DNA from: Psilocybe cubensis
Lineage: Eukaryota
Length of the DNA stretch: 64,000 nucleotides
NCBI GenBank assembly: GCA_017499595.2
Contig: CM039007.1
Span: 1-64,000 of the forward strand
Direction: 5' to 3'
Position numbers and translations under genes: made by a program. Numbering within the stretch: the stretch's first letter is position 1; every line of letters starts with the position of its first letter. Shown here one piece after another: positions 150 through 19,387 of this stretch. The notes under the pieces were generated by a model, which saw only the letters and a program-made list of their open reading frames with translations, did not search any database and was not told the origin of the DNA.

Positions 150-761
150 AAAAAACCCTAACCCTAAACCTAAACCTAAACCCTAAACCCTAAACCCTAA
201 GCCCTAACCTAACCCCAACCCTAAGCTAACTAAGTCTAACCTTAGTAGGAAGTAAGGTAGGCGTGTGAACTTCCGAAAGGCATGTGATTGTGAAGGGCCG
301 GATCTAATTTAGTACATGGGAAAAGTTACTTAGTACCTCGGGAAAAGTTCCTTAGTACCGTGGAAACATTTTTGATGGACCGGATCATGAACTGTCCAAT
401 TAAGATTCACAACAATCAATCAATTGATTGTTAGGTAAGGACCCAGGTAAGCTATTTATACTCTTGACATGAGAATATTCCCATGTCACGGTTACTCGGA
501 GCCACGTAACCAGAGTATTTTATATCCATGTGATTCACATCACAGTCAATAACCCACGATGTCAAAGAACAAAAGTGTTGGATCCACTTTTGACAGGTTA
601 CCATGTGCCACATCGACCCGTGACACTCTGTTCATCAGAGATCTGTCTAACTTGACAATAAACATTGACAGATTTGTGATAGTCGGTAAGATACATGACA
701 GCTGCGCAGCATCACTTCACGCGCTGTCATCGGATGTTCCAGAACATTCCTTCTAAGAATA

Positions 762-824
762 GCCACTGAAGAGTCTATAAAGACGAAAGGGCTGGCTGCT
801 GATAACAATCAACAGCCCTCTGGC
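762..824 (+). ncRNA. Type I hammerhead ribozyme; predicted cleavage after C820 (CUC)
   Basis: GCCA-CTGAAGA-GTCT/ATAA/AGAC-GAAA-GGGCTG...CAGCCC-TC-TGGC. The catalytic core is complete and stems I, II and III pair. Confidence 0.92.
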
Positions 825-858
825 CTTCTTTCCATTTAACTCACAGTTTAAACAAGTC

Positions 859-887
859 GCTCGCACCTCGCTTCGCTCGGTGCTCGC
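859..887 (+). promoter_or_regulatory. Conserved hairpin just upstream of the telomere-annealing site (putative RT recognition signal); repeated at the 3' end of every pLTR and fragment
   Basis: GC-TC-GCACC-TC-GCTTCGC-TC-GGTGC-TC-GC. It covaries with the family-2 copy at 26979-27013. Confidence 0.65.
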
Positions 888-931
888 TCCCCCCCTAAAC
901 CCAACGACTTTGCTATTACCCAACAGCTACT

Positions 932-2087
932 ATGTCTTCCACTTACTCTGCTGCCTTCTCTCGTGCCATGTCCCCCACCCTGGACGCACTCACCCAGGCT
1001 GTCGTCAACAACACAGTTTTTGGCGTCAACGACGAAGCTGGCCGCCACAACGCCCTCATCGACGAGTTGGCCACTGTCGTCATCAAGAAAATAGCTGAGT
1101 GCCGCTCCATTGACCAGATTGTAGACTGCGTCTTTTTTGACTATCGTGCTGCCCTTAGGGAGTTTCTCCTCAACCTCGCATCGTGGTGCGATAAGAGGGA
1201 AACAGTCAAGGCTAGCCTCGAGCGCCTTGAACTTGCCGTTAGCGCAGGCAACACCCCCAATCGCCTTCGGGTGAAGGCTCCCGAGTTCCAACTTACGAAG
1301 GAATTCGCGGATGCCGGGTCAGCGGAAGCTCTTCGAGTTTCCTCTACGTTCTCCACCGCTCGTGATGTCTTCCAAAAGGCAATCAACGACGGCGCCATTC
1401 AGGCGAAAAAGGACGAACTGGCCTTTTGGGATGATAAATGCGCACTCAATAACTGTTATGAAGCTGCTGCCCTCATCGTTAAGACAACTTACGATGATCG
1501 CAAATCCAGCTATAAGCTCCCCGTTTTCTCTACAGACAACAAGGGAGTTCGTCGAATAACAGATTGGGTAGTGTCACCGCAGAAGAAGGCTGAATGCAGC
1601 GCATTGCAAACCATTTTGCCAGCCATCTTCTCTCATATCAAACAGATTGTCAACTTGCGCCACCGCGCTTTGGCAATCAAGATTGAGAAAAAGCGGTCGA
1701 CTGCGGCAACAGCCGATGTCGAGATGGCCGATGCGACCAAACCAGGTCCATCGATTCAATCCCTTATTGATAAGGGCTTGAATGCACGTCTCAAGAAGCT
1801 CAACCTTGGATCTGTGGGCAAGAAGGCAAGTTCTCGTAACCCTTCACCCATAACTCTGGATACTAATTACTATTCTAATTACCCAGACTTTGTCTGGCCA
1901 GAATTCGTCCAAGGCTCCTCAACCTCAGGCCAAGAAAGCTGGCCCTTCGAAATTCAAACCCTCGTCGACGCCTTCGCAGAAGAAGCCCCAAACCAAGGCT
2001 TCCAACAAGGTCGACAACAAGAAGAAAGGGAAGGGGAGAGCTCCCGTCAAGAACGATCCAAAGGGAAAGGGAAAGGCAAGAGCCTAG
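932..2087 (+). CDS. Predicted spliced ORF1 protein (join 932-1825, 1887-2087; 364 aa) with a Lys-rich C-terminal tail
   Basis: AAG|GCAAGT donor, CTAAT branch and CCCAG acceptor define a 61-nt intron. Splicing joins in frame to the 1890-2087 ORF. Equivalent introns lie at 6991-7051 and 15783-15843. Confidence 0.7.
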
Positions 2088-4462
2088 ACGCGCGGTCTAA
2101 TGTAGTACCTTTTACGTCGGTAAGACCCGCCTTCCCCAACTCTATTCCTGACGATATACTCACCATGACTAAAACAGACGCAGTTTCTTTTGTACACTTA
2201 CATACGCCGATCTCATTCTTGTTGGCTGGCCAGTATCGTAGTAGTGTACACTGTAGTCCTGGTGTGGTGGTCCCTGTAGATATAGCAAATGATTTGTCAC
2301 TCGGACTCAATTATATGTTTTTTACTCTACCTTCTCAAAGTCTGATCATGCAAGCATGGAATGATTTTCAACGAAGAATAAGATGGCGTATCTATTTTTT
2401 GTTTAAGGAAGGCATGAACAAACCTTTTGATCCAGATTACGGAGTAAGCTCAAAAAAGAAAGAGAAACCTCCAGTATTACCGCAATACATGGAACTTGGC
2501 CTTTCGATGGGACGTCGGTACGTGCAACGCACGATCGCAAGTATCCCGGAAGAAGCCCTTACGGAGATGCGAAAGCACGCGTTCTCTCCTAAAAGGGACA
2601 AGATCCGTAAGTTTCTTATCGATAACAACTATGTTATTACGATGACAGATAAGAATCTTGGCCTCGCGGTGTCTGAACGCGACTGGATATTAAGGAATGA
2701 GCTCAATCTTCTTAAAGATGAACGTAACTATGAAGAGTTAGAATTCGAAGTTGCGCAAGAAGTAATGAAGAGCAAAATGATCCAGATGCAAACTCTTGCA
2801 CATACCGTCGAAGATGAACATCTGTTTCTATTTGAACTTGGGTTGTCTCGATTCTTTCTATCGAATGTACCGGAAGACGGATCATCGTTCAAGTACCCTC
2901 AATTTCATGGTATACCTAAAATCCACAAAAAACCTACTGGATTTAGGCCCATAATTCCGTGTCACTCTGTAGTATTTAATCCTGCAGCCAAGTTTGTATC
3001 AAAAGAGCTTAAGCCGATTATTAAATCGACTCCTTCAATCATTCACGGAACGAAGGATCTCTTTACGAGATTAAGCCAATTGCGTATAGACCCCAAACGA
3101 CAATGGTATTTTGTCACCGGGGATGTAGTTGCTTTCTATCCCAATATTCCGTTGGACTTGTGCATCGAAATCGTTTGTAATATGTACGAGGAATGGTTAC
3201 TCAACGCTTCGGAAGAAAACACTGCATTAGCCCATATTAATCCAAATTCGTTAGAGAATAACTTGGTTAAATTGGGCATCTTTAAACGTGCTATCGAGAT
3301 TGGCAATACGCAATTGATAACACAACATGGGTCTAGATATTTTAGACAAAAAAATGGCCTCGCAATGGGCGTCGCGGATTCTCCGGACCTTGCTAACCTC
3401 TTTGGAGCCCATTTTGAAATAAAGTCAAAAATCTTAGACCACCCAAACGTGGCCTTCTATGGAAGGTACATCGACGATTGTTTCGCAATTGTCTACGCCG
3501 AGTCCGAAGCACTTGCACTTAATCTTATTAAAGAAACAATAAAGTTCGATGGTTGTGTTATCGAATGGGCTGTTTCCTCGTCGGGATGTCAATTTCTCGA
3601 TGCTTTCATATTCAAGGAGTCTGGAAAACTTCATTGGAAGCCATTTGTCAAGACAGGAAACAACCGAGAACGAGTTCCATGGGTATCACATCATCCTTTG
3701 GACGTCAAACGTGGCGTCTACATTGGAGAGTTATCCAGGTTAGCCGTGCTATGTAGTACCAAGGAAATCTACATCGGAGCAATTAGAGACCTTAACGCTC
3801 TCTATTTGATGCGCGGTTATCCCGAAAACCTAGTCATGTCTTGGTGTAAGAAGAATATACAAGAACGTTGGGAAAAGCGATTCGCTTTACGAGTCGCAGA
3901 GCACGACGAATCCATTCTTGTACTTAAAACCAGATTTGATCAGGTATGGAATTGGTTTTCAGCTGCTGAACTTGGAAAAACTGTTACCGAGTACTGGTCG
4001 GCATGGTATGAACATGCCGAGAAAGGTTTGTATAGTGCAGACTCGTCCAGACCCCTTATCAAACCAGATCCAAATTACGTTCACGACCTCGATGATGTTC
4101 GCCCGGAGCTGTTCACACAGATCCTCGTGGACGGAGAAACTGAGTTCGTACCGGATTTGAGGAAGATAGGACTACTCGGAAGTCGTTGGATAGTATCGCG
4201 AAAACGCAATACTAATCTTTTCGACCTTGCAAATGTGTGGAAGAAAACAGTCTTTCGTAAACTGGATGAAGACATCGCTGAAAAAGGTGGTGTTGTTCCC
4301 GAAACTCAAAACGTTAATGAAACTTATCATTCTGCTTTAGTTGAAGCTGCTGAACAGATAAGTATCGAAAGTGATAACGAGATAATACTTCATAGACGTT
4401 CAATCTCACAAGAGAGGGAACATCCAGAATTCGGCAGAATATCCAAATCTTACAACCGATGA
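932..4462 (+). CDS. Penelope-like reverse transcriptase ORF (1176 aa if the internal intron is retained); no endonuclease
   Basis: RT motifs FHGIPKIHK, FRPIIP, TGDVVAFYPNIP, RQKNGLAMG, GRYIDDCF and QFLD, plus the thumb-region HHPLDVKRG. Confidence 0.92.
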   Translation: MSSTYSAAFSRAMSPTLDALTQAVVNNTVFGVNDEAGRHNALIDELATVVIKKIAECRSIDQIVDCVFFDYRAALREFLLNLASWCDKRETVKASLERLELAVSAGNTPNRLRVKAPEFQLTKEFADAGSAEALRVSSTFSTARDVFQKAINDGAIQAKKDELAFWDDKCALNNCYEAAALIVKTTYDDRKSSYKLPVFSTDNKGVRRITDWVVSPQKKAECSALQTILPAIFSHIKQIVNLRHRALAIKIEKKRSTAATADVEMADATKPGPSIQSLIDKGLNARLKKLNLGSVGKKASSRNPSPITLDTNYYSNYPDFVWPEFVQGSSTSGQESWPFEIQTLVDAFAEEAPNQGFQQGRQQEEREGESSRQERSKGKGKGKSLDARSNVVPFTSVRPAFPNSIPDDILTMTKTDAVSFVHLHTPISFLLAGQYRSSVHCSPGVVVPVDIANDLSLGLNYMFFTLPSQSLIMQAWNDFQRRIRWRIYFLFKEGMNKPFDPDYGVSSKKKEKPPVLPQYMELGLSMGRRYVQRTIASIPEEALTEMRKHAFSPKRDKIRKFLIDNNYVITMTDKNLGLAVSERDWILRNELNLLKDERNYEELEFEVAQEVMKSKMIQMQTLAHTVEDEHLFLFELGLSRFFLSNVPEDGSSFKYPQFHGIPKIHKKPTGFRPIIPCHSVVFNPAAKFVSKELKPIIKSTPSIIHGTKDLFTRLSQLRIDPKRQWYFVTGDVVAFYPNIPLDLCIEIVCNMYEEWLLNASEENTALAHINPNSLENNLVKLGIFKRAIEIGNTQLITQHGSRYFRQKNGLAMGVADSPDLANLFGAHFEIKSKILDHPNVAFYGRYIDDCFAIVYAESEALALNLIKETIKFDGCVIEWAVSSSGCQFLDAFIFKESGKLHWKPFVKTGNNRERVPWVSHHPLDVKRGVYIGELSRLAVLCSTKEIYIGAIRDLNALYLMRGYPENLVMSWCKKNIQERWEKRFALRVAEHDESILVLKTRFDQVWNWFSAAELGKTVTEYWSAWYEHAEKGLYSADSSRPLIKPDPNYVHDLDDVRPELFTQILVDGETEFVPDLRKIGLLGSRWIVSRKRNTNLFDLANVWKKTVFRKLDEDIAEKGGVVPETQNVNETYHSALVEAAEQISIESDNEIILHRRSISQEREHPEFGRISKSYNR

Positions 4463-4511
4463 AAAGAATACTAGCGCGTAAGGCGTAAAGCATTAGAAAA
4501 AAACCCTAACC

Positions 4512-4574
4512 GTAAGTATTCCTTGCTACAAAGTAACAAACATCTACTTACAAGCAACACATTGGATTAAATAG
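4512..4574 (+). other. 63-nt spliceosomal intron interrupting a telomeric tract (also at 9680-9742, 13071-13133 and 18472-18534)
   Basis: AAACCCTAACC|GTAAGT...ATAG|CTAAACC. Precisely spliced versions are present at 163/164 and 5325/5326. Confidence 0.88.
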
Positions 4575-5172
4575 CTAAACCTAAACCTAAACCCTAAACC
4601 CTAAACCCTAAGCCCTAACCTAACCCCAACCCTAAGCTAACTAAGTCTAACCTTAGTAGGAAGTAAGGTAGGCGTGTGAACTTCCGAAAGGCATGTGATT
4701 GTGAAGGGCCGGATCTAATTTAGTACATGGGAAAAGTTACTTAGTACCTCGGGAAAAGTTCCTTAGTACCGTGGAAACATTTTTGATGGACCGGATCATG
4801 AACTGTCCAATTAAGATTCACAACAATCAATCAATTGATTGTTAGGTAAGGACCCAGGTAAGCTATTTATACTCTTGACATGAGAATATTCCCATGTCAC
4901 GGTTACTCGGAGCCACGTAACCAGAGTATTTTATATCCATGTGATTCACATCACAGTCAATAACCCACGATGTCAAAGAACAAAAGTGTTGGATCCACTT
5001 TTGACAGGTTACCATGTGCCACATCGACCCGTGACACTCTGTTCATCAGAGATCTGTCTAACTTGACAATAAACATTGACAGATTTGTGATAGTCGGTAA
5101 GATACATGACAGCTGCGCAGCATCACTTCACGCGCTGTCATCGGATGTTCCAGAACATTCCTTCTAAGAATA

Positions 5173-5235
5173 GCCACTGAAGAGTCTATAAAGACGAAAG
5201 GGCTGGCTGCTGATAACAATCAACAGCCCTCTGGC
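5173..5235 (+). ncRNA. Hammerhead ribozyme (variant A)
   Basis: Same sequence as 762-824. Confidence 0.92.
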
Positions 5236-5924
5236 CTTCTTTCCATTTAACTCACAGTTTAAACAAGTCGCTCGCACCTCGCTTCGCTCGGTGCTCGCTC
5301 CCCCCCTAAACCCTAAACCCTAACCCTAAACCTAAACCCTAAACCCTAAACCCTAAACCCTAACCTAACCCCAACCCTAAGCTAACTAAGTCTAACCTTA
5401 GTAGGAAGTAAGGTAGGCGTGTGAACTTCCGAACGGCATGTGATTGTGAAGGGCCGGATCTAATTTAGTACATGGGAAAAGTTACTTAGTACTTCGGGAA
5501 AAGTTCCTTAGTACCGTGGAAACATTTTTGATGGACCGGATCATGAACTGTCCAATTAAGATTCACAACAATCAATCATTCTATTGTTTGATTGTTAGGT
5601 AAGGACCCAGGTAAGCTATTTATACTCTAGACATGTGAATATTCCCATGTCGCGGTTACTCGGAGCCACGTAACCAGAGTAATCTATATCCATGTGATTC
5701 ACATCACAGTCAATAACCCACGATGTCAAAGAACAAAAGTGTTGGATCCACTTTTGACAGGTTACCATGTGCCACATCGACCCGTGACACTCTGTTCATC
5801 AGAGACCTGTCTAACTTGACAATAAACATTGACAGATTTGTGATAGTCGGTAAGATACATGACAGCTGCGCAGCATCACTTCACGCGCTGTCATCGGATG
5901 TCTAGAACATTCCTTCTAAGAATA

Positions 5925-5987
5925 GCCACTGAAGAGTCTATAAAGACGAAAGGGCTGGTTGTTGGGATCCCCCAACAGCCCTCTGGC
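5925..5987 (+). ncRNA. Hammerhead ribozyme (variant B)
   Basis: Same core. The distal part of stem III is TTGGG/ATCC/CCCAA. Confidence 0.92.
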
Positions 5988-6096
5988 CTTCTTTCTATTT
6001 CAAACTCACAGTTTAAACTAGTCGCTCGCACCTCGCTTCGCTCGGTGCTCGCTCCCCCCCTAAACCCAACGACTTTGCTATCACCCATCAGTTACC

Positions 6097-9000
6097 ATGT
6101 CATCCCAATACTCTGCTGCATTCTCTCGTGCCATGTCCCCTACCCTGGACGCACTCACCCAGGCCGTCGTCAACAACACTGTCTTCGGCGTCAACGATGA
6201 AGCAGGCCGCCATAACGCTCTTATCGACGAGCTGGCCACTGTGGTCATCAAAAAAATAGCTGAGTGCCGCTCCGTTGACCAAGTCATAGACTGCGTCTTT
6301 TTTGACTATCGTGCTGCCCTCAGGGAGTTTCTCCTCAACCTCGCATCGTGGTGCGACAAGAGGGAAACAGTCAAGGCTAGCCTCGAGCGCCTTGAATCTG
6401 CCGTTAGCGCAGGCAACACGCCCAATCGCCTTAAGGTGAAGGCACCCGAGTTCCAACTTACGAAGGAATTCGCGGATGCCGGGTCAGCGGAGGCTCTTCG
6501 AGTCTCCACTACGTTCTCTTCCGCTCGTGATGCCTTCCAAAAGGCAATTAACGACGGCGCCGTTCAGGCGAAAAAGGACGAGCTGGCTTTTTGGGATGAT
6601 AAATGCGCGCTCAACTCTTGCTACGAAGCTGCTGCCCTCATCGTTAAGGCAACTTACGATGATCGCAAATCCAGCTACAAGCTCCCTGTTTTCTCTACAG
6701 ACAACAAGGGAGTTCGACGTATAGCAGAGTGGGTAGTGTCTCCGCAAAAGAAAGCCGAATGCAGTGCGCTGCAAACTATACTGCCGGCGATCTTTTCTCA
6801 TATCAAACAGATTGTCAACATGCGCCACCGCGCCTTGGCAATTAAGATTGAGAAAAAGCGGACGACTGCGGCAACAGCCGATGTCGAGATGGCCGATGCG
6901 ACCAAACCAGGTCCATCGATTCAATCCCTTATTGATAAGGGCTTGAATGCACGTCTCAAAAAGCTCAACCTTGGATCTGTGGGCAAGAAGGCAAGTTTTC
7001 GTAACCCTTCACCCATAATTCTGGACACTAATTATTACTCTAATTACCCAGACTTTGTCTGGCCAGAATTCGTCCAAGGCTCCTCAACCTCAGGCCAGGA
7101 AAGCTGGCCCTTCGAAACCCAAGTCGTCGTCGACGCCTTCGCAGAGGAAGCCTCAAACCAAGGCTTCCAACAAGGTCGACAACAAGAAGAAAGGGAAGGG
7201 GAGAGCTCCCGTCAAGAACAACGATCCAAAGGGAAAGGGAAAGGCAAGAGCCTAGACGCGCGGTCTACTGTAGCATCATTTACGTCGGTGAGACCCGCCT
7301 TCCCCAACTCTATTCCTGACGATATACTCACCATGACTAAAACAGACGCAGTTTCTTTTGTACACCTCAATACCCCGATTTCATTCTTATTGGCTGGCCA
7401 GTATAGATCTAGTGTACACTGTAGTCCTGGTGTTTCGGTCCCTGTTGATGTAGCAAATGATTTATCTCTTGGACTCAATTATATGTTTTTTACACTGCCT
7501 TCTAAAAATCTGATCATGCAAGCATGGAATGATTTTCAACGAAGAATAAGATGGCGTATCTATTTTTTGTTTAAAGAAGGCATGAATAAACCTTTCGATC
7601 CAGACTATGGAGTAAGCTCTAAAAAGAAAGAGAAACCTCCAATGTTACCGCAATTTATGGAACTTGGCCTTTCAATGGGACGTCGGTACGTTATTAAAAC
7701 GATCGCAAGTATCCCGGAAGAAGCCCTTAAAGAGATGCGAAAGCACGCGTTCTCTCCTAAAAGGGACAAGATCCAAAAGTTTCTTTTCGATAACAACTAT
7801 GTTATTACGATGACAGATAAGAATCTTGGCCTCGCGGTGTCTGAACGCGACTGGATATTAAGGAATGAGCTCAATCTTCTTGAAGATGAACGCAACTACG
7901 AAGAGTTAGAATTCGAAGTTGCGCAAGAAGTTATGAAGAGCAAAATGATTCAGATGCAAACTCTCGCACGTACCGTCGAAGATGAACATCTGTTTCTATT
8001 TGAACTTGGGTTGTCTCGATTCTTTCTATCGAATGTACCGGAAGACGGATCATCGTTCAAGTATCCTCAATTTCATGGTATACCTAAAATCCACAAGAAA
8101 CCTACTGGATTTAGGCCCATAATTCCGTGTCACTCTGTAGTATTTAATCCTGCAGCCAAGTTTGTATCAAAAGAGCTTAAGCCGATTATTAAATCGACTC
8201 CTTCAATCATTCACGGAACGAAGGATCTCTTTACGAGATTAAGCCAATTGCGTATAGACCCCAAACGACAATGGTATTTTGTCACCGGGGATGTAGTTGC
8301 TTTCTATCCCAATATTCCGTTGGACTTGTGCATCGAAATCGTTTGTAATATGTACGAGGAATGGTTACTCAACGCTTCGGAAGAGAACACTGCATTAGCC
8401 CATATTAATCCAAATTCGTTAGAGAATAACTTGGTTAAATTGGGCATCTTTAAACGTGCTATCGAGATTGGCAATACGCAATTGATAACACAACATGGGT
8501 CTAGATATTTTAGACAAAAAAATGGCCTCGCAATGGGCGTCGCGGATTCTCCGGACCTTGCTAACCTCTTTGGAGCCCATTTTGAAATAAAGTCAAAAAT
8601 CTTAGACCACCCAAACGTGGCCTTCTATGGAAGGTACATCGACGATTGTTTCGCAATTGTTTACGCCGAGTCCGAAGCACTTGCACTTAATCTTATTAAA
8701 GAAACAATAAAGTTCGATGGTTGTGTTATCGAATGGGCTGTTTCCTCGTCGGGATGTCAATTTCTCGATGCTTTCATATTCAAGGAGTCTGGAAAACTTC
8801 ATTGGAAGCCATTTGTCAAGACAGGAAACAACCGAGAACGAGTTCCATGGGTATCACATCATCCTTTGGACGTCAAACGTGGCGTCTACATTGGAGAGTT
8901 ATCCAGGTTAGCCGTGCTATGTAGTACTAAGGAAATCTACATCGGAGCAATTAGAGACCTTAACGCTCTCTATTTGATGCGCGGTTATCCCGAAAACCTA

Positions 9001-10404: not shown

Positions 10405-10523
10405 CTTCTTTCTATTTCAAACTCACAGTTTAAACTAGTCGCTCGCACCTCGCTTCGCTCGGTGCTCGCTCCCCCCCTAAACCCTAAACCCTAAACCCTA
10501 AACCCTAAACCCTAAACCCTAAA

Positions 10524-10601: not shown

Positions 10602-10615
10602 CCCTAAACCCTAAA

Positions 10616-13600
10616 TCCAAAGGGAAAGGGAAAGGCAAGAGCCTAGATGCGCGGTCTAATGTAGTACCTTTTACGTCGGTGAGACCCGCCTTCCCCAACT
10701 CTATTCCTGACGATATACTCACCATGACTAAAACAGACGCAGTTTCTTTCGTACACTTACATACTCCAATATCATTCTTGTTGGCTGGCCAGTATCGTAG
10801 TAGTGTACATTGTAGTCCTGGTGTTTCTGTCCCTGTTGATGTAGCAAACGATCTCTCTCTCGGACTTAATTATATGTTTTTCACTCTGCCTTCTAAAAGT
10901 CTGATCATGCAAGCATGGAATGATTTCCAACGAAGAATAAGATGGCGTATCTATTTTTTGTTTAAGGAAGGCATGAATAAACCTTTTGATCCAGATTATG
11001 GAGTAAGCTCAAAAAAGAAAGAGAAACCTCCTGTATTACCGCAATATATGGAACTTGGCCTTTCGATGGGACGTCGGTACGTGCAACGCACGATCGCAAG
11101 TATCCCGGAAGAAGCCCTTACGGAGATGCGAAAGCACGCGTTCTCTCCTAAAAGGGACAAGATCCGTAAGTTTCTTATCGATAACAACTATGTTATTACG
11201 ATGACAGATAAGAATCTTGGCCTCGCGGTGTCTGAACGCGACTGGATATTAAGGAATGAGCTCAATCTTCTTGAAGATGAACGTAATTACGAAGAGTTAG
11301 AATTCGAAGTTGCGCAAGAAGTTATGAAGAGCAAAATGATTCAGATGCAAACGCTCGCACGTACTGTCGAAGATGAACATCTGTTTCTATTTGAACTTGG
11401 GTTGTCTCGATTCTTTCTATCGAATGTACCGGAAGACGGATCATCGTTCAAGTATCCTCAATTTCATGGTATACCTAAAATCCACAAGAAACCTACTGGA
11501 TTTAGGCCCATAATTCCGTGTCACTCTGTAGTATTTAATCCTGCAGCCAAGTTTGTATCAAAAGAGCTTAAGCCGATTATTAAATCGACTCCTTCAATCA
11601 TACACGGAACGAAGGATCTCTTTACGAGATTAAGCCAATTGCGTATAGACTCCAAAAGACAATGGTATTTTGTCACTGGAGATGTAGTTGCTTTCTATCC
11701 CAATATTCCGTTGGACTTGTGCATCGAAATCGTTTGTAGTATGTACGAGGAATGGTTACTCAACGCTTCGGAAGAAAACACTGCATTAGCCCATATTAAT
11801 CCAAATTCGTTAGAGAATAACTTGGTTAAATTGGGCATCTTTAAACGTGCTATCGAGATTGGCAATACGCAATTGATAACACAACATGGGTCTAGATATT
11901 TTAGACAAAAAAATGGCCTCGCAATGGGCGTCGCGGATTCTCCGGACCTTGCTAACCTCTTTGGAGCCCATTTTGAAATAAAGTCAAAAATCTTAGACCA
12001 CCCAAACGTGGCCTTCTATGGAAGGTACATCGACGATTGTTTCGCAATTGTTTACGCCGAGTCCGAAGCACTTGCACTTAATCTTATTAAAGAAACAATA
12101 AAGTTCGATGGTTGTGTTATCGAATGGGCTGTTTCCTCGTCGGGATGTCAATTTCTCGATGCTTTCATATTCAAGGAGTCTGGAAAACTTCATTGGAAGC
12201 CTTTTGTCAAGACAGGAAACAACCGAGAACGAGTTCCATGGGTATCACATCATCCTTTGGACGTCAAACGTGGCGTCTACATTGGAGAGTTATCCAGGTT
12301 AGCCGTGCTATGTAGTACCAAGGAAATCTACATCGGAGCAATTAGAGACCTTAACGCTCTCTATTTGATGCGCGGTTATCCCGAAAACCTAGTCATATCT
12401 TGGTGTAAGAAGAATATACAAGAACGTTGGGAAAAGCGATTCGCTTTACGAGTCGCAGAGCACGACGAATCCATTCTTGTACTTAAAACCAGATTTGATC
12501 AGGTATGGAATTGGTTTTCAGCTGCTGAACTTGGAAAAACTGTTACCGAGTACTGGTCGGCATGGTATGAACATGCCGAGAAAGGTTTGTATAGTGCAGA
12601 CTCGTCCAGACCCCTTATCAAACCAGATCCAAATTACGTTCACGACCTCGATGATGTTCGCCCGGAGCTGTTCACACAGATCCTCGTGGACGGAGAAACT
12701 GAGTTCGTACCGGATTTGAGGAAGATAGGACTACTCGGAAGTCGTTGGATAGTATCGCGAAAACGCAATACTAATCTTTTCGACCTTGCAAATGTGTGGA
12801 AGAAAACAGTCTTTCGTAAACTGGATGAAGACATCGCTGAAAAAGGTGGTGTTGTTCCCGAAACTCAAAACGTTAATGAAACTTATCATTCTGCTTTAGT
12901 TGAAGCTGCTGAGCAGATAAGTATCGAAAGTGATAACGAGATAATACTTCATAGACGTTCAATCTCACAAGAGAGGGAACATCCAGAATTTGGCAGAATA
13001 TCCAAATCTTACAACCGATGAAAAGAATACTAGCGCTTAAGGCGTAAAGCATTAGAAAAAAACCCTAACCGTAAGTATTCCTTGCTATAAAGTAACAAAC
13101 ATCTACTTACAAGCAACACATTGGATTGAATAGCTAAACCTAAACCTAAACCCTAAACCCTAAACCCTAAACCCTAACCTAACCCCAACCCTAAGCTAAC
13201 TAAGTCTAACCTTAGTAGGAAGTAAGGTAGGCGTGTGAACTTCCGAACGGCATGTGATTGTGAAGGGCCGGATCTAATTTAGTACATGGGAAAAGTTACT
13301 TAGTACTTCGGGAAAAGTTCCTTAGTACCGTGGAAACATTTTTGATGGACCGGATCATGAACTGTCCAATTAAGATTCACAACAATCAATCATTCTATTG
13401 TTTGATTGTTAGGTAAGGACCCAGGTAAGTTATTTATACTCTAGACATGTGAATATTCCCATGTCGCGGTTACTCGGAGCCACGTAACCAGAGTAATCTA
13501 TATCCATGTGATTCACATCACAGTCAATAACCCACGATGTCAAAGAACAAAAGTGTTGGATCCACTTTTGACAGGTTACCATGTGCCACATCGACCCGTG

Positions 13601-13878
13601 ACACTCTGTTCATCAGAGACCTGTCTAACTTGACAATAAACATTGACAGATTTGTGATAGTCGGTAAGATACATGACAGCTGCGCAGCATCACTTCACGC
13701 GCTGTCATCGGATGTCTAGAACATTCCTTCTAAGAATAGCCACTGAAGAGTCTATAAAGACGAAAGGGCTGGTTGTTGGGATCCCCCAACAGCCCTCTGG
13801 CTACTTTCCATTTAACTCCCAGTTTAAACTAGTCGCTCGCACCTCGCTTCGCTCGGTGCTCGCTCCCCCCCTAAACCC
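10616..13878 (+). mobile_element. Family-1 copy 3, 5'-truncated and capped by telomeric repeats; RT frame open to 13021
   Basis: CCCTAAA joins directly to TCCAAAGGGAAAGGG (ORF1/RT boundary). The 3' pLTR is complete. Confidence 0.9.
13739..13801 (+). ncRNA. Hammerhead ribozyme (variant B, stem I extended to TAGCCA/TGGCTA)
   Basis: Core and all three stems are intact. Confidence 0.92.
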
Positions 13879-13910
13879 TAAACCCTAAACCCTAAACCCT
13901 AAACCCTAAA

Positions 13911-14088
13911 CTTCACGCGCTGTCATCGGATGTCTAGAACATTCCTTCCAAGAATAGCCACTGAAGAGTCTATAAAGACGAAAGGGCTGGTTGTTGGGAT
14001 CCCCCAACAGCCCTCTGGCCTTCTTTCTATTTCAAACTCACAGTTTAAACTAGTCGCTCGCACCTCGCTTCGCTCGGTGCTCGCTCCC
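13911..14088 (+). mobile_element. ~180-nt pLTR 3' fragment including a hammerhead (13957-14019)
   Basis: Flanked by CCCTAAA tracts on both sides. Confidence 0.85.
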
Positions 14089-14139
14089 ACCCTAAACCCT
14101 AAACCCTAAACCCTAAACCCTAAACCCTAAACCCTAAAC

Positions 14140-17100
14140 CCTAAACCCTAAACCCTAAGCCCTAACCTAACCCCAACCCTAAGCTAACTAAGTCTAACCT
14201 TAGTAGGAAGTAAGGTAGGCGTGTGAACTTCCGAAAGGCATGTGATTGTGAAGGGCCGGATCTAATTTAGTACATGGGAAAAGTTACTTAGTACCTCGGG
14301 AAAAGTTCCTTAGTACCGTGGAAACATTTTTGATGGACCGGATCATGAACTGTCCAATTAAGATTCACAACAATCAATCAATTGATTGTTAGGTAAGGAC
14401 CCAGGTAAGCTATTTATACTCTTGACATGAGAATATTCCCATGTCACGGTTACTCGGAGCCACGTAACCAGAGTATTTTATATCCATGTGATTCACATCA
14501 CAGTCAATAACCCACGATGTCAAAGAACAAAAGTGTTGGATCCACTTTTGACAGGTTACCATGTGCCACATCGACCCGTGACACTCTGTTCATCAGAGAT
14601 CTGTCTAACTTGACAATAAACATTGACAGATTTGTGATAGTCGGTAAGATACATGACAGCTGCGCAGCATCACTTCACGCGCTGTCATCGGATGTTCCAG
14701 AACATTCCTTCTAAGAATAGCCACTGAAGAGTCTATAAAGACGAAAGGGCTGGCTGCTGATAACAATCAACAGCCCTCTGGCTACTTTCCATTTAACTCA
14801 CAGTTTAAATTAGTCGCTCGCACCTCGCTTCGCTCGGTGCTCGCTCCCCCCCTAAACCCAACGACTTTGCTATTATCCATCAGCCACTATGTCATCCCAA
14901 TACTCTGCTGCTTTCTCTCGTGCCATGTCCCCCACCCTGGACGCACTCACCCAGGCCGTCGTCAACAACACCGTCTTCGGCGTCAACGATGAAGCAGGCC
15001 GCCATAACGCTCTGATCGACGAGCTGGCCACTGTGGTCATCAAAAAAATAGCTGAGTGCCGCTCCGTTGACCAAGTCATAGACTGCGTCTTTTTTGACTA
15101 TCGTGCTGCCCTTAGGGAGTTTCTCCTCAACCTCGCATCGTGGTGCGATAAGAGGGAAACAGTCAAGGCTAGCCTCGAGCGCCTTGAATCTGCCGTTAGC
15201 GCAGGCAACACACCCAATCGCCTTAAGGTGAAGGCACCCGAGTTCCAACTTACGAAGGAATTCGCGGATGCCGGGTCAGCGGAGGCTCTTCGAGTCTCCA
15301 CTACGTTCTCTACCGCTCGTGACGCCTTCCAAAAGGCAATTAACGACGGCGCCGTTCAGGCGAAAAAGGACGAGCTGGCTTTTTGGGATGATAAATGCGC
15401 GCTCAACTCTTGCTACGAAGCTGCTGCCCTCATCGTTAAGGCAACTTACGATGATCGCAAATCCAGCTACAAGCTCCCTGTTTTCTCTACAGACAACAAG
15501 GGAGTTCGACGTATAGCAGAGTGGGTAGTGTCTCCGCAAAAGAAAGCCGAATGCAGTGCGCTGCAAACTATACTGCCGGCGATCTTTTCTCATATCAAAC
15601 AGATTGTCAACATGCGCCACCGCGCCTTGGCAATTAAGATTGAGAAAAAGCGGATGACTGCGGCAACAGCCGATGTCGAGATGGCCGACGCGACCAAACC
15701 AGGTCCGTCGATTCAATCCCTTATTGATAAGGGCTTGAATGCACGTCTCAAGAAGCTCAACCTTGGATCTGTGGGCAAGAAGGCAAGTTTTCGTAACCCT
15801 TCACCCATAATTCTGGATACTAATTATTACTCTAATTACCCAGACTTTGTCTGGCCAGAATTCGTCCAAGGCTCCTCAACCTCAGGCCAGGAAAGCTGGC
15901 CCTTCGAAACCCAAGTCGTCGTCGACGCCTTCGCAACGCAAGCCTCAAACCAAGGCTTCCAACAAGGTCGACAACAAGAAGAAAGGGAAGGGGAGAGCTC
16001 CCGTCAAGAACAACGATCCAAAGGGAAAGGGAAAGGCAAGAGCCTAGACGCGCGGTCTACTGTAGCATCATTTACGTCGGTGAGACCCGCTTTCCCCAAC
16101 TCTATTCCTGACGATATACTCACCATGACTAAAACAGACGCAGTTTCTTTCGTACACTTACATACTCCAATATCATTCTTGTTGGCTGGCCAGTATCGTA
16201 GTAGTGTACATTGTAGTCCTGGTGTTTCTGTCCCTGTTGATGTAGCAAACGATCTCTCTCTCGGACTTAATTATATGTTTTTCACTCTGCCTTCTAAAAG
16301 TCTGATCATGCAAGCATGGAATGATTTTCAACGAAGAATAAGATGGCGTATCTATTTTTTGTTTAAGGAAGGCATGAATAAACCTTTTGATCCAGATTAT
16401 GGAGTAAGCTCAAAAAAGAAAGAGAAACTCCCAGTATTACCGCAATACATGGAACTTGGCCTTTCGATGGGACGTCGGTACGTGCAACGCACGATCGCAA
16501 GTATCCCGGAAGAAGCCCTTACGGAGATGCGAAAGCACGCGTTCTCTCCTAAAAGGGACAAGATCCGTAAGTTTCTTATCGATAACAACTATGTTATTAC
16601 GATGACAGATAAGAATCTTGGCCTCGCGGTGTCTGAACGCGACTGGATATTAAGGAATGAGCTCAATCTTCTTGAAGATGAACGTAACTACGAAGAGTTA
16701 GAATTCGAAGTTGCGCAAGAAGTGATGAAGAGCAAAATGATACAGATGCAAACGCTCGCACGTACTGTCGAAGATGAACATCTGTTTCTATTTGAACTTG
16801 GGTTGTCTCGATTCTTTCTATCGAATGTACCGGAAGACGGATCATCGTTCAAGTATCCTCAATTTCATGGTATACCTAAAATCCACAAGAAACCTACTGG
16901 ATTTAGGCCCATAATTCCGTGTCACTCTGTAGTATTTAATCCTGCAGCCAAGTTTGTATCAAAAGAGCTTAAGCCGATTATTAAATCGACTCCTTCAATC
17001 ATACACGGAACGAAGGATCTCTTTACGAGATTAAGCCAATTGCGTATAGACTCCAAAAGACAATGGTATTTTGTCACTGGAGATGTAGTTGCTTTCTATC

Positions 17101-19272
17101 CCAATATTCCGTTGGACTTGTGCATCGAAATCGTTTGTAGTATGTACGAGGAATGGTTACTCAACGCTTCGGAAGAAAACACTGCATTAGCCCATATTAA
17201 TCCAAATTCGTTAGAGAATAACTTGGTTAAATTGGGCATCTTTAAACGTGCTATCGAGATTGGCAATACGCAATTGATAACACAACATGGGTCTAGATAT
17301 TTTAGACAAAAAAATGGCCTCGCAATGGGCGTCGCGGATTCTCCGGACCTTGCTAACCTCTTTGGAGCCCATTTTGAAATAAAGTCAAAAATCTTAGACC
17401 ACCCAAACGTGGCCTTCTATGGAAGGTACATCGACGATTGTTTCGCAATTGTTTACGCCGAGTCCGAAGCACTTGCACTTAATCTTATTAAAGAAACAAT
17501 AATGTTCGATGGTTGTGTTATCGAATGGGCTGTTTCCTCGTCGGGATGTCAATTTCTCGATGCTTTCATATTCAAGGAGTCTGGAAAACTTCATTGGAAG
17601 CCATTTGTCAAGACAGGAAACAACCGAGAACGAATTCCATGGGTATCACATCATCCTTTGGACGTCAAACGTGGCGTCTACATTGGAGAGTTATCCAGGT
17701 TAGCCGTGCTATGTAGTACCAAGGAAATCTACATTGGAGCAATTAGAGACCTTAACGCTCTCTATTTGATGCGCGGTTATCCCGAAAACCTAGTCATGTC
17801 TTGGTGTAAGAAGAATATACAAGAACGTTGGGAAAAGCGATTTGCTTTACGAGTCGCAGAGCACGACGAATCCATTCTTGTACTTAAAACCAGGTTTGAT
17901 CAGGTATGGAATTGGTTTTCAGCTGCTGAACTTGGAAAGACTATTACCGAGTACTGGTCGGCATGGTATGAACATGCCGAGAAAGGTCTGTATAGTGCAG
18001 ACTCGTCCAGACCCCTTATCAAACCAGATCCAAATTACGTTCACGACCTCGATGATGTTCGCCCGGAGCTGTTCACACAGATCCTCGTGGACGGAGAAAC
18101 TGAGTTCGTACCGGATTTGAGGAAGATAGGACTACTCGGAAGTCGTTGGATAGTATCGCGAAAGCGCAATACTAATCTTTTCGACCTTGCAAATGTGTGG
18201 AAGAAAACAGTCTTTCGTAAACTGGATGAAGACATCGCTGAAAAAGGTGGTGTTGTTCCCGAAACTCAAAACGTTAATGAAACTTATCATTCTGCTTTAG
18301 TTGAAGCTGCTGAACAGATAAGTATCGAAAGTGATAACGAGATAATACTTCATAGACGTTCAATCTCACAAGAGAGGGAACATCCAGAATTCGGCAGAAT
18401 ATCCAAATCTTACAACCGATGAAAAGAATACTAGCGCGTAAGGCGTAAAGCATTAGAAAAAAACCCTAACCGTAAGTATTCCTTGCTACAAAGTAACAAA
18501 CATCTACTTACAAGCAACACATTGGATTAAATAGCTAAACCTAAACCTAAACCCTAAACCCTAAACCCTAAGCCCTAACCTAACCCCAACCCTAAGCTAA
18601 CTAAGTCTAACCTTAGTAGGAAGTAAGGTAGGCGTGTGAACTTCCGAAAGGCATGTGATTGTGAAGGGCCGGATCTAATTTAGTACATGGGAAAAGTTAC
18701 TTAGTACCTCGGGAAAAGTTCCTTAGTACCGTGGAAACATTTTTGATGGACCGGATCATGAACTGTCCAATTAAGATTCACAACAATCAATCAATTGATT
18801 GTTAGGTAAGGACCCAGGTAAGCTATTTATACTCTTGACATGAGAATATTCCCATGTCACGGTTACTCGGAGCCACGTAACCAGAGTATTTTATATCCAT
18901 GTGATTCACATCACAGTCAATAACCCACGATGTCAAAGAACAAAAGTGTTGGATCCACTTTTGACAGGTTACCATGTGCCACATCGACCCGTGACACTCT
19001 GTTCATCAGAGATCTGTCTAACTTGACAATAAACATTGACAGATTTGTGATAGTCGGTAAGATACATGACAGCTGCGCAGCATCACTTCACGCGCTGTCA
19101 TCGGATGTTCCAGAACATTCCTTCTAAGAATAGCCACTGAAGAGTCTATAAAGACGAAAGGGCTGGCTGCTGATAACAATCAACAGCCCTCTGGCTACTT
19201 TCCATTTAACTCACAGTTTAAATTAGTCGCTCGCACCTCGCTTCGCTCGGTGCTCGCTCCCCCCCTAAACCC
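14140..19272 (+). mobile_element. Family-1 copy 4 (5' edge blurred in telomeric repeats); hammerheads at 14720-14782 and 19133-19195
   Basis: 4413-bp period. Both pLTRs share the diagnostic TGGCTAC...AAATTAGTC tail. Confidence 0.9.
14889..18422 (+). CDS. Penelope-like RT ORF, copy 4 (1177 aa)
   Basis: RT motifs are intact. Confidence 0.92.
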   Translation: MSSQYSAAFSRAMSPTLDALTQAVVNNTVFGVNDEAGRHNALIDELATVVIKKIAECRSVDQVIDCVFFDYRAALREFLLNLASWCDKRETVKASLERLESAVSAGNTPNRLKVKAPEFQLTKEFADAGSAEALRVSTTFSTARDAFQKAINDGAVQAKKDELAFWDDKCALNSCYEAAALIVKATYDDRKSSYKLPVFSTDNKGVRRIAEWVVSPQKKAECSALQTILPAIFSHIKQIVNMRHRALAIKIEKKRMTAATADVEMADATKPGPSIQSLIDKGLNARLKKLNLGSVGKKASFRNPSPIILDTNYYSNYPDFVWPEFVQGSSTSGQESWPFETQVVVDAFATQASNQGFQQGRQQEEREGESSRQEQRSKGKGKGKSLDARSTVASFTSVRPAFPNSIPDDILTMTKTDAVSFVHLHTPISFLLAGQYRSSVHCSPGVSVPVDVANDLSLGLNYMFFTLPSKSLIMQAWNDFQRRIRWRIYFLFKEGMNKPFDPDYGVSSKKKEKLPVLPQYMELGLSMGRRYVQRTIASIPEEALTEMRKHAFSPKRDKIRKFLIDNNYVITMTDKNLGLAVSERDWILRNELNLLEDERNYEELEFEVAQEVMKSKMIQMQTLARTVEDEHLFLFELGLSRFFLSNVPEDGSSFKYPQFHGIPKIHKKPTGFRPIIPCHSVVFNPAAKFVSKELKPIIKSTPSIIHGTKDLFTRLSQLRIDSKRQWYFVTGDVVAFYPNIPLDLCIEIVCSMYEEWLLNASEENTALAHINPNSLENNLVKLGIFKRAIEIGNTQLITQHGSRYFRQKNGLAMGVADSPDLANLFGAHFEIKSKILDHPNVAFYGRYIDDCFAIVYAESEALALNLIKETIMFDGCVIEWAVSSSGCQFLDAFIFKESGKLHWKPFVKTGNNRERIPWVSHHPLDVKRGVYIGELSRLAVLCSTKEIYIGAIRDLNALYLMRGYPENLVMSWCKKNIQERWEKRFALRVAEHDESILVLKTRFDQVWNWFSAAELGKTITEYWSAWYEHAEKGLYSADSSRPLIKPDPNYVHDLDDVRPELFTQILVDGETEFVPDLRKIGLLGSRWIVSRKRNTNLFDLANVWKKTVFRKLDEDIAEKGGVVPETQNVNETYHSALVEAAEQISIESDNEIILHRRSISQEREHPEFGRISKSYNR

Positions 19273-19287
19273 TAACCCTAAAACCCT

Positions 19288-19369
19288 TGGCCTTCTTTCC
19301 ATTTAACTCACAGTTTAAACAAGTCGCTCGCACCTCGCTTCGCTCGGTGCTCGCTCCCCCCCTAAACCC
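19288..19369 (+). mobile_element. 82-nt pLTR fragment beginning exactly at the hammerhead cleavage site
   Basis: AAACCCT|TGGCCTTCTTTCC...CCCCCCCTAAACCC matches 821-902. Confidence 0.88.
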
Positions 19370-19387
19370 TAAACCCTAAACCCTAAG

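Follow-up and report, generated by a model that had tools for sequence, protein, structure and literature searches.

Seven telomere-capped blocks of an apparent Coprina-type Penelope-like element at a Psilocybe cubensis chromosome end, and how they may have been added

The first 19,386 nt of the window, the 64,000-nt stretch of Psilocybe cubensis DNA analysed here, are a chromosome end: (CCCTAAA)21 is followed by seven head-to-tail blocks of a single retroelement. We consider it moderately probable that a Coprina-clade, endonuclease-less (EN-less) Penelope-like element (PLE) extended this end seven times through a five-step cycle. Blocks were mapped by BLAST self-comparison and direct reading of the sequence (Table 1), with unit coordinates running from u1 = 821, the first base past the hammerhead cut, to u4411 = 5231. 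The 21 perfect CCCTAAA units lie at 6-152, at the window start, and the terminal location, the ORF directed away from the end, the 5' telomere caps and the 3' reverse-complement telomere repeats hold for 7/7 blocks. Caps range from 21 units (B1) down to at most one; that of B2 is essentially its own telomere-like leader, on which B1 is seated with no more than one added repeat. In B1, self-BLAST aligns 164-820 with 4575-5231 and 5232-5313 with 821-902, each at 100% identity, and 150-163 is A6-CCCTAACC fused straight onto exon 2. The exact 5' boundary of B6 is masked by telomere repeats at 14100-14165. Blocks diverge from each other by 3-5%, have distinct truncation points and caps, and are mosaics: the 5' ORF of B6 resembles that of B2, its middle resembles B4 and its 3' part B1. 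The self-BLAST map and direct reading bear out the original observation of at least seven successive additions that end at the same site and carry telomeric caps.

Table 1 Features of the chromosome end and of a second element family in the window.
Feature	Position	Strand	Details
Terminal telomere, C-strand (CCCTAAA)n	1-149	.	chromosome end to left; direct reading
B1, newest	150-5313	+	leader + pLTR, u1-4411, u1-82
B1 parts			spliced leader + pLTR 150-820; full monomer 821-5231; terminal S 5232-5313
B2	about 5315-10484	+	layout of B1; E1 remnant 5315-5325, exon 2 from 5326, then pLTR; full monomer 5984-10400; S 10401-10484
B3	10524-10604	+	S-only mini-addition, u3-82; starts 2 nt past predicted hammerhead cut
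B4	10615-13878	+	u1236-4411, u1-82; 5' truncation inside ORF
B5	13910-14099	+	u4305-4411, u1-82; 5' truncation in pLTR, hammerhead uncleaved, site variant CCCACCCTAAACCC
B6	about 14153-19276	+	layout of B1; leader truncated within tract T, pLTR, monomer 14779-19191, S
B7, oldest	19288-19369	+	S-only mini-addition, u1-82; starts exactly at predicted hammerhead cut
Remnant of original telomere, onto which B7 was added	19370-19386	.	unique DNA afterwards
Type-I hammerhead, one of 8 family-1 copies	758-830	+	core CTGAAGA at 766; helix II 773-784, GAA 785-787, helix III 788-819, C17 at 820, predicted cut 820|821
Other predicted cuts			5231|5232, 5983|5984, 10400|10401, 13797|13798, 14015|14016, 14778|14779, 19191|19192
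S segment, u1-82	821-902	+	hairpin, then C-run and telomere-complementary site 889-902
Single ORF, 1176 aa	932-4462	+	N-terminal region, DKN motif T572-G577, RT motifs with YIDD 846-849, thumb
Leader exon 1 (E1)	4497-4511	+	A7 + CCCTAACC
63-nt spliceosomal-type intron	4512-4574	+	GTAAGT..TAG, between AAAAAAACCCTAACC and CTAAACCTAAACC, splitting telomere-like tract
Further intron copies	9680-9742, 13071-13133, 18472-18534	+	
Exon 2	4575-5231	+	telomere-like tract T (about 4575-4640), pLTR body P up to cut
Family 2, divergent Coprina-like copy	23814-27044	+	5'-truncated, now interstitial; direct reading
Family 2 parts			ORF remnant 23814-26033; E1 26527-26541; intron 26542-26606; tract from 26607; hammerhead core 26885, cut 26944|26945; hairpin 26986-27006; (CCCTAAA)4 27017-27044

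The element is apparently a Coprina-type, EN-less PLE of Psilocybe cubensis. Its ORF (1176/1177 aa) is intact in B1, B2 and B6 and shares 98-99% identity with proteins that carry the name Psilocybe cubensis; 240 relatives were found, and identity to the Lentinula edodes protein P0112 is 45% (PMC13159263 mentions a Coprina-1_LeEd). No second ORF of at least 100 aa is present on the sense strand of the unit. The residues T572-D-K-N-L-G577 and Y843 G844 R845 I847 D848 D849 do not vary among the 24 sequences aligned, the former named DKG/DKN as a PLE-type N-terminal motif after PMC13159263 and PMC8557442. A Pfam scan of the ORF gave no match to an RT domain, while precomputed PF00078 annotation exists for some relatives; no GIY-YIG family was found in the 1176-aa ORF at E≤1, in a scan of limited sensitivity since it also missed the RT. 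When an AF2 model of residues 401-1120 (pLDDT 74.1) was compared with the PDB using Foldseek, TERT chains took every one of ranks 1-12, with E-values of 1.2e-7 to 1.1e-6 and low TM-scores of 0.28-0.38; the G2L4, group II intron and LINE-1 RTs ranked below them. In this model the RT fold is closest to TERT, as a ranking of folds and not a phylogeny. Pseudo-LTRs (pLTRs, partial tandem) carrying the hammerhead are present. Motifs, fold ranking and the lack of a detected endonuclease family agree with the original reading of an EN-less Penelope-like RT accompanied by a hammerhead. Host and family are new for the Coprina clade, namely Psilocybe cubensis with its TTTAGGG-type telomeres. The window also holds a second family, whose ORF is 46% identical to that of family 1 over 664 aa; the ORF downstream of this copy is unrelated.

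All seven blocks terminate at one C-rich/CCCTAAACCC site, after which telomere repeats continue in phase. The sequence CCCCCCCTAAACCC, with at most one mismatch, occurs nine times against 0.03 expected, and none of 100 shuffles reached nine. Three of these sites are inside full copies, about 30 nt upstream of the ORF start (889, 6054 and 14846), and six are block ends (5300, 10471, 13865, 14086, 19259 and 19356); at 10592, where the remaining block ends, the site is present as an indel variant, CCCCCCCTAACCC. Priming at the internal CCCUAAACCC of the RNA can be taken as established because 7/7 junctions are located there, in phase with the telomere repeats, as had been anticipated together with the hairpin beside the site. 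The block-ending site lies 69-82 nt 3' of the predicted hammerhead cut, behind a hairpin at 859-887 (core stem 863-867/879-883, apex UC-GC-UUC-GC-UC). In 37/39 elements examined a CCCTAA(A) unit is found 42-76 nt past the cut, and in relatives the site is likewise preceded by a hairpin with an invariant apex. For a selected set of hairpins (12 of 39 metagenome apex-motif matches passed the stem criterion, and 10 were used together with 2 window copies), 88% of cells are paired vs. 63% in shuffles, with 0/500 shuffles equalling the observed value, and both sides have changed in 7/9 pairs.

The predicted hammerhead cuts delimit a monomer of 4411 nt (821-5231), matching the unit of about 4.4 kb proposed at the outset. 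The ribozyme has the type-I layout, with the core CUGANGA ... GAAA ... UH, three helices and an open helix I; in family 1, helices I, II and III comprise 4, 4 and 7 bp. Our parser identified 45 hammerheads in 40/80 metagenome relatives and none on reverse complements or shuffles, and across the 40 loci helices I-III vary in sequence yet remain paired. Rfam gave no hammerhead match at gathering score, the best sub-threshold hits being RAGATH-1-hammerhead (23-29.1 bits vs. 56.3) and Hammerhead_3 (19.5 vs. 48.5); a long helix III is a fungal PLE hammerhead variant (PMC4209133). Two of the four truncated blocks begin at the predicted cut (B7 at +0 nt, B3 at +2 nt). These are the only two S-only blocks in the window, and none occurs in 80 metagenome loci. 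From the starts of B7 and B3, at the predicted cut or 2 nt past it, we infer that the hammerhead cleaves transcripts in vivo, giving RNA ends at u1 and u4411, so that the start of the S segment would correspond to an RNA 5' end.

The leader supplies a separate RNA signature. The intron is missing from the 5' leaders of B1 (163|164) and B2 (5325|5326), where E1 abuts exon 2, and is retained in all four internal copies; in B6 the leader ends within the tract, which leaves no splice state to be read. The leaders of B1 and B2 are therefore spliced, in line with the expectation of a telomere-splitting intron and of insertions that finish in a spliced tract. A spliced leader also opens locus L035, and L009 and L010 have one in their proximal blocks, with family-specific irregular E1 sequences. 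A regular expression detected the intron in 14/80 metagenome loci, to which the L008-L010 family and family 2 are added, for a total of at least 17 soil-metagenome relatives plus the second family in the window. The C-run spanning the splice junction is exactly 3 in 18/19 cases, and in 13/19 the 12 nt around the junction form a perfect telomere repeat.

Within B1, within B2 and within B6, the upstream pLTR+S (about 695-704 nt) matches the downstream one without a single difference. From block to block these copies show 4-32 differences, and lineages differ at 4-34 positions, all altered in both copies. Gene conversion is an alternative source of such pLTR identity. Similarity also breaks at the cut: B1 and B6 have 0/621 differences up to it, then 4/84 and 49/598; B2 and B4 have one pLTR difference before it and six within the first 25 nt past it; and two copies in L009 stay identical over some 115 nt before the cut and about 5 nt past it, diverging from there on, the terminal S of L009 being of the L010 type. 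All eight P|S junctions inside blocks are seamless, without added bases, which is equally expected from an RNA that was never cut. We favour the view that the cut-aligned breaks and identical pLTRs reflect a joining of cleaved RNAs, and that, as first proposed, hammerhead-delimited RNAs would be joined during cDNA synthesis. The original run-off/jump scheme gains partial support from the S-only starts at the cut, the identical pLTRs and the breaks, the jump between cleaved RNAs being a putative step.

In the cycle that we propose, the telomeric G-overhang would pair with the internal site of the sense-strand RNA and prime cDNA there (step 1), on transcripts that the hammerhead probably cuts at u1/u4411 (step 2). 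The cDNA may then run out where the RNA was cleaved, with telomerase healing the end to leave the 82-nt S-only B3 and B7, or it may continue onto the hammerhead-made 3' end of another element RNA, an unspliced 4.4-kb monomer (step 3). A ligated or circular monomer would yield the same DNA at this step. From the monomer 5' end the cDNA would move onto a short spliced leader RNA (E1-T-P), presumably a capped 5' cleavage product defined by the TSS, and end at or near its 5' end (step 4). The new end would thereby finish in a telomere-like G-strand tract, directly usable by telomerase or by the next element (step 5).

The strongest competitor, possible but in our judgement rather unlikely, keeps the element and the priming site and derives each full block from a single read-through RNA that starts at E1, exceeds unit length and was not cleaved. 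The cap-proximal intron would be spliced and the distal copy retained, RT would initiate internally at the last S site, and hammerhead cleavage would be a side reaction that gives only dead-end 82-nt additions. Such an RNA yields the exact block layout without any jump and makes 8/8 internal P|S junctions seamless. Moreover, unprocessed multimeric RNA is the dominant template in PMC11167929, where hammerhead mutants have no effect on insertion. Tandem sources for read-through RNAs exist, as many relatives assemble as tandem/circular contigs, and k-mer-sized end overlaps occur in 19/80 loci. On the other hand, separately inherited pLTRs would be expected, yet 3/3 full blocks have 0 differences vs. 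4-34 between lineages, and the breaks at the cut in B1/B6, B2/B4 and L009 are left unexplained. A transcript from a downstream E1 in this array would, in addition, cross telomere repeats and a second leader, a layout seen in none of the blocks.

Subtelomeres recombine, and the blocks are mosaics, so that the array could mainly stem from chromosome ends recombining at the DNA level (break-induced replication, unequal exchange or gene conversion) after a few original insertions, instead of from seven independent rounds of reverse transcription, with pLTRs homogenised by gene conversion. We regard this as improbable: template switching predicts mosaics equally well, every block has its own 5' end and telomere-cap length, 7/7 share one RNA-templated end site, and RNA signatures are present in the two starts at the ribozyme cut and two at the spliced junction. 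That all or part of the array is an assembly artefact is very improbable, even though 4.4-kb repeats at a contig end are hard to assemble and, according to PMC13159263, a tandem Coprina copy needed collapsing in another fungus, given that the 3-5% divergence, distinct truncation points and caps show that the blocks are not simple duplicates and that 53-59% of sampled words recur in three other runs, which is not independent proof.

Our preferred reading is only partly new. Telomere attachment through a hammerhead and adjacent reverse-complement telomere repeats is known already: EN-minus PLEs attach to G-overhangs via reverse-complement telomere repeats beside the 3' hammerhead (PMC8557442 and PMC6431247). 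The suggestion that the complete cycle is unpublished therefore holds in part, the core idea being in print and the fine structure adding to it: S-only starts at the cut, identical pLTRs, breaks at the cut, and a spliced leader alongside a retained intron. Neither S-only additions at the cut nor spliced leaders were found in the texts compared here. As a more speculative extension, which we advance tentatively, the hammerhead might make three modular template RNAs (the 82-nt S, an unspliced coding monomer and a capped spliced leader) that a TERT-like RT strings together at the chromosome end. The S RNA, with its 5' hammerhead end, hairpin and C-rich site, could be a minimal telomerase-RNA-like template, addable alone as in B3 and B7, and intron removal would fuse two half-tracts into an in-phase telomere repeat, a ready-made telomere seed per insertion. 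If true, this would make Coprina elements an extant intermediate that links retrotransposition with telomerase, and hammerhead purpose, pLTR origin and intron retention in PLEs would be jointly explained.

The Coprina clade of endonuclease-deficient PLEs was reportedly described by Gladyshev and Arkhipova in 2007. According to PMC13159263, Coprina elements likewise encode, in a single ORF, an RT that has a DKN motif and thumb and no GIY-YIG domain; they are found at chromosome ends with ORFs towards the centromere, with telomere repeats on their 5' ends and between element and chromosome, and have direct terminal repeats with a hammerhead within the repeat. In Coprina-1_Alen of A. lentis, the same source reports a 104-bp segment in the 3' repeat that is missing from the 5' repeat in 12/13 copies; by our comparison it looks like the leader intron described here, a reading that PMC13159263 does not give. 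The present array differs in preserving S-only additions from the ribozyme cut and spliced leaders. Athena elements, or Terminons, of bdelloid rotifers are said to have been described by Arkhipova et al. in 2017. According to PMC6431247 and PMC8557442, they share an EN-less PLE RT and head-to-tail terminal arrays truncated by telomere repeats, but Terminons are giants that reach 40 kb and carry many accessory ORFs, and Athena possesses two ORFs, whereas the unit here is 4411 nt with one ORF, as in Coprina. Terminon membership was rejected on this basis, as the unit does not span tens of kb with accessory ORFs. In the Terminon model, the hammerhead fold exposes the repeats; here, with the predicted cut 68 nt upstream of the site, cleavage would detach the site from the body, and the DNA suggests that cleaved RNAs are re-joined.

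In Poseidon PAc of Anolis, an EN+ PLE, the hammerhead cuts 26 nt past the ORF start, and RT begins inside the RNA, in a stem-loop at 111-118 nt of the ORF (PMC11167929). Its start in or beside a stem-loop about 85-92 nt past the cut (in vitro) parallels the 69-82 nt here, as do the tandem and pLTR organisation; the start site here differs in being complementary to the telomere overhang. In this PLE, the only one studied in vitro, cleavage is dispensable and no RNA-seq reads end at the cut (PMC11167929). Retrozymes resemble the element in that a hammerhead-delimited monomer RNA is copied and DNA products are tandem, but, according to PMC5680766, PMC7229834 and bioRxiv 10.64898/2026.07.22.740005, they are short and non-coding with demonstrated circular RNAs, whereas this is a 4.4-kb autonomous element. 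Retrozyme membership was rejected, as the unit encodes its own RT. Circular RNA is one way to seamless joins and cannot alone explain the spliced leader. HeT-A/TART/TAHRE are telomeric non-LTR retrotransposons of Drosophila, a host without telomerase. Their arrays, too, are terminal and head-to-tail, the chromosome end priming reverse transcription and the copies being 5'-truncated to varying degrees, but they belong to another RT class and have poly(A) ends instead of telomere-complementary sites; here, canonical repeats cap every block. With telomerase, finally, the element shares a modelled RT fold closest to TERT and, as we propose, a short C-rich template-like site that follows a hairpin in an 82-nt RNA and is copied onto the G-overhang. 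It would differ in that the cDNA reads through the hairpin to the RNA end without a repeat-addition cycle, and it differs in that the element supplying the template also encodes the RT.

Because the window opens with 21 perfect CCCTAAA units (motif count), we read its left edge as the chromosome end; the outward-running G-rich strand is the minus strand. A BLAST self-map and direct reading place one element family (family 1) at positions 150-19386, in seven head-to-tail copies whose ORFs are oriented inward. These stacked blocks, B1 (newest) to B7 (oldest), are listed in the table together with neighbouring features; unit positions run between two successive predicted hammerhead cuts, with u1 (= 821) directly past the first and u4411 (= 5231) directly ahead of the second. 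All seven blocks terminate at the same C-run/CCCTAAACCC site, followed by in-phase telomere repeats, and the site motif occurs nine times against 0.03 expected. The original prediction of successive additions that share one end site, each followed by telomere repeats, thus holds throughout the array. Of the nine, three represent the internal site that the element itself carries about 30 nt upstream of the start codon; the CCCCCCCTAAACCC sites are therefore ruled out as independent junctions, three of them being internal 5′-UTR copies of an element-encoded site. The ORFs of B1, B2, B4 and B6 are mosaics of one another (B6 is like B2 up to about 2056, like B4 at about 2057-2320 and like B1 from about 2321), a pattern suggesting that lineages have often undergone template switching or recombined with one another.

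Element blocks and neighbouring features in the window (pLTR, pseudo-LTR; u, unit position)
Feature	Position	Strand	Content
B1	150-5313		leader + pLTR, full monomer, u1-82
B2	about 5315-10484		leader + pLTR, full monomer, u1-82
B3	10524-10604		u3-82 only
B4	10615-13878		u1236-4411, then u1-82
B5	13910-14099		u4305-4411, then u1-82
B6	about 14153-19276		leader + pLTR, full monomer, u1-82
B7	19288-19369		u1-82 only
878-aa ORF	19529-22165	+	directly inside the oldest telomere remnant; middle rich in proline and arginine; no Pfam family matched
Direct repeats	23540-23700		about 60 nt each, with palindrome GGAGGCCGGCCTCC; just upstream of the truncated family 2 copy
Family 2 copy	23814-27044		divergent Coprina-like element, 5′-truncated
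ORF downstream of family 2	27037-27525		no homology to the element N-terminus
Copia-type retrotransposon pol	42070-45381	+	gag-pre-integrase, integrase core, RVT_2 (E 5.7e-67)
ORF with NPHP3_N/NACHT-type NTPase domain	51732-53273	+	domain typical of fungal NLR-like genes

Each of B1, B2 and B6 carries an intact ORF of 1176 or 1177 amino acids. The nearest proteins, named Psilocybe cubensis, share 98-99% identity; further relatives are hundreds at 35-72% identity, on environmental contigs whose length is roughly that of the unit, and one from Lentinula edodes at 45%. A Pfam search of the ORF gave only a noise match, and no PDB sequence matched the RT region. In the alignment the TDKNLG motif is invariant and RT motifs including YIDD are present, and for an AlphaFold model of residues 401-1120 (pLDDT 74) the 12 best Foldseek matches are TERT chains, with group II intron and LINE-1 RTs ranking below them. 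Neither the ORF map nor the Pfam scan revealed an endonuclease domain in the element. Since a TERT-like RT without endonuclease is combined here with a terminal location, pLTRs and a hammerhead, the element fits an endonuclease-deficient Coprina-type Penelope-like element (PLE), as judged from these features. Among 80 related loci from soil metagenomes, 19 contigs of about unit length (L002, L008, L016, L019, L021, L027, L029, L031, L032, L034, L038, L047, L049, L064, L067 and L079 among them) have identical ends of k-mer-like length (77-139 nt), as expected if the elements were perfect tandem or circular, DNA or RNA.

Rfam at curated thresholds yields no hammerhead match, weak hits being the only ones, at all eight copies. 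The type-I architecture is nonetheless complete, with CUGAAGA, a 4-bp helix II, GAAA, a long helix III, UC and the helix I partner, and the cut is predicted between 820 and 821. According to passages in PMC4209133, hammerheads of the fungal PLE variant have a long helix III, and this variant was shown in Serpula to cleave as a monomer. A simple parser finds the architecture 45 times in 40 of the 80 metagenome relatives, and not once on reverse complements or in shuffles of those relatives; helix sequences vary between loci with pairing kept. Of the four 5′-truncated blocks in the array, B7 begins precisely at the predicted cut and B3 two bases inside it. Given truncation points distributed across some 4.5 kb, a pair of starts within 3 nt is very unlikely to be due to chance. 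The B7 and B3 starts imply that RNAs with a hammerhead-made 5′ end would be present in the nucleus, and that RT would initiate at the site whatever lies downstream. A search of the 80 metagenome loci for further fragments consisting only of S (u1-82, from the cut through a hairpin to the telomere-complementary site) or for altered upstream contexts at the cut gave a single, trivial match. Very short 5′-truncated S fragments are present in relatives (L023:4470-4560, L004:4415-4470 and L015:2666-2790), stacked between an element end and the next block's leader; none starts at the cut, and S-only additions are thus not peculiar to the window.

Of 39 elements examined, 37 have a CCCTAA(A) unit 42-76 nt past the cut and shortly upstream of the start codon. 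Ahead of this unit lies a hairpin. Its apex (UC-GC-UUC-GC-UC) is invariant in both families of the window and in part of the relatives, and the outer stem is altered on both sides (GCACC/GGTGC versus GCAGC/GCTGC here). In a selected set of 12 hairpin sequences, 88% of cells are paired versus 63% in shuffles and seven of nine pairs have changed on both sides, the three innermost outer pairs being enforced because selection required at least three contiguous outer pairs. That requirement left 12 of 39 apex-motif matches in the metagenome loci, ten of which make up the set together with two window copies. Other relatives have a different hairpin in the same place.

Downstream of the ORF, the element reads A7-CCCTAACC, then GTAAGT..63 nt..TAG, then CTAAACCTAAACC. 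The intron is kept in all four internal copies, whereas at the 5′ end of B1 A6-CCCTAACC is joined directly to CTAAACC (between 163 and 164), and B2 starts with the same intron-less join (between 5325 and 5326); B6 is truncated inside the tract and uninformative as to splice state. L035 shows the same contrast between a spliced start and an intron-bearing copy, as do the proximal blocks of L009 and L010, in which exon 1 is irregular and specific to the family and so leaves no ambiguity. The intron lies at the same position in family 2, in the L008-L010 family and, by a strict pattern, in 14 of the 80 loci. The splice site falls inside a telomere unit, with a C-run of exactly three across the junction in 18 of 19 cases and a perfect CCCTAA or CCCTAAA repeat, per each element's repeat type, in 13 of 19. 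These comparisons show that the predicted intron inside the telomere unit is conserved across divergent fungal elements with either CCCTAA or CCCTAAA as the host repeat. Because the leader is spliced and the body unspliced, we infer that the template must be a sense RNA that met the spliceosome. Intron loss via RT slippage on microhomology is ruled out, both exons being complete at the junction, as is a single circular RNA as the sole template, since the two passes differ in splice state. Judging from these leaders, the new DNA end terminates in a telomere-like tract; B1 sits on the leader of B2 with at most one repeat added between, so the B2 tract did serve as the next primer. That the body keeps its intron through cap loss after cleavage is a guess.

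In all three full blocks (B1, B2 and B6), no differences separate the upstream pLTR+S copy (about 700 nt) from the downstream one; between blocks there are 4 to 32, each in both copies. We favour a single template sequence as the source of both pLTRs of an insertion. The 621 nt that lead up to the cut are the same in B1 and B6, which then differ at 4/84 and 49/598 positions, B2 and B4 have one pLTR difference before the cut and six in the following 25 nt, and the two copies in L009 are identical until about 5 nt past the cut, the terminal S of L009 beyond that point being of another lineage, the one present in L010. Both the pLTR identity and the breaks at the cut would be predicted if hammerhead-ended RNAs were made separately and then joined; the identity would equally follow from a ligated monomer. 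The reading to which we give slightly better than even probability is therefore a composite one, in which priming would occur at the S site, RT would run off, or continue, at hammerhead-made RNA ends that are thereby joined, the body would be copied from the unspliced monomer, and the last segment would be copied from spliced leader RNA, probably the capped 5′ cleavage product. The strongest alternative, one read-through RNA left uncut, of which the cap-proximal intron alone is spliced, would give the same block layout and seamless joins and agrees with in vitro work (PMC11167929), but it leaves both the pLTR identity and the similarity breaks at the cut unaccounted for: a longer-than-unit RNA copied from the parent would carry two separately inherited repeats, between which drift would be expected. 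We consider this template possible but rather doubtful. DNA recombination as the source of the array is improbable, and misassembly even more so.

Further inward, the family 2 copy is 46% identical to family 1 at the amino acid level and has its intron, tract, hammerhead and hairpin plus site in the same layout. It terminates on an old (CCCTAAA)4 tract that is internal today, at a distance of 27 kb from the current end, and we read this tract as a fossil chromosome end; the lack of homology between the downstream ORF and the element N-terminus indicates that family 2 ends at this old telomere. The telomere unit is CCCTAAA (TTTAGGG, 'plant type') at 1-152 and in all internal caps; TTAGGG telomeres are reported for most Agaricales. 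Exon 1 of the element retains a CCCTAA-type unit, and relatives carry one or the other type throughout. Among the papers listed in a literature search on telomeres and Penelope elements of Psilocybe cubensis, none named the species or dealt with its telomere unit.

The array is informative because its joins bear on three stated questions about PLEs. The function of the hammerhead is described as 'still unclear' in a passage of PMC8557442, the use of sense or antisense RNA as template is unresolved (PMC3846280), and in the only in vitro study (PMC11167929) the hammerhead did not need to cleave and RNAs with an end at the cut were not seen. On all three, this chromosome end and its metagenome relatives provide DNA-level evidence, in the form of insertions starting at the ribozyme cut, one template per pLTR pair, similarity breaks, and a spliced leader with an unspliced body. 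The resulting predictions are concrete and addressable by RNA end-mapping in a culturable fungus; should they hold, it would become clearer how a TERT relative builds chromosome ends.

The element belongs, from its sequence features, to known PLE biology and is not a new system. Passages in PMC8557442 and PMC6431247, both citing Gladyshev & Arkhipova 2007 and Arkhipova et al. 2017, describe attachment of endonuclease-deficient PLEs to G-overhangs via short reverse-complement telomere repeats beside a 3′-terminal hammerhead. An endonuclease-containing PLE begins RT internally, in a stem-loop at nt 111-118 of its ORF, which the hammerhead cuts at nt 26; in vitro, cleavage was not required, and RNA-seq gave no reads with an end at the cut (PMC11167929). 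The skeleton of the telomere-extension cycle put forward in the original prediction is thus already contained in these sources. For the intron-split tract, the spliced leaders and the cut-site ends we found no earlier description in the literature searched, the scope of which did not extend to Gladyshev & Arkhipova 2007 and Arkhipova et al. 2017. A probable parallel comes from Ascochyta lentis, in which 12 of 13 copies have a 104-bp segment in the 3′ repeat that the 5′ repeat lacks; the passages of PMC13159263 that describe this segment do not name it an intron, and by analogy with the elements analysed here it is probably the same leader-intron contrast.
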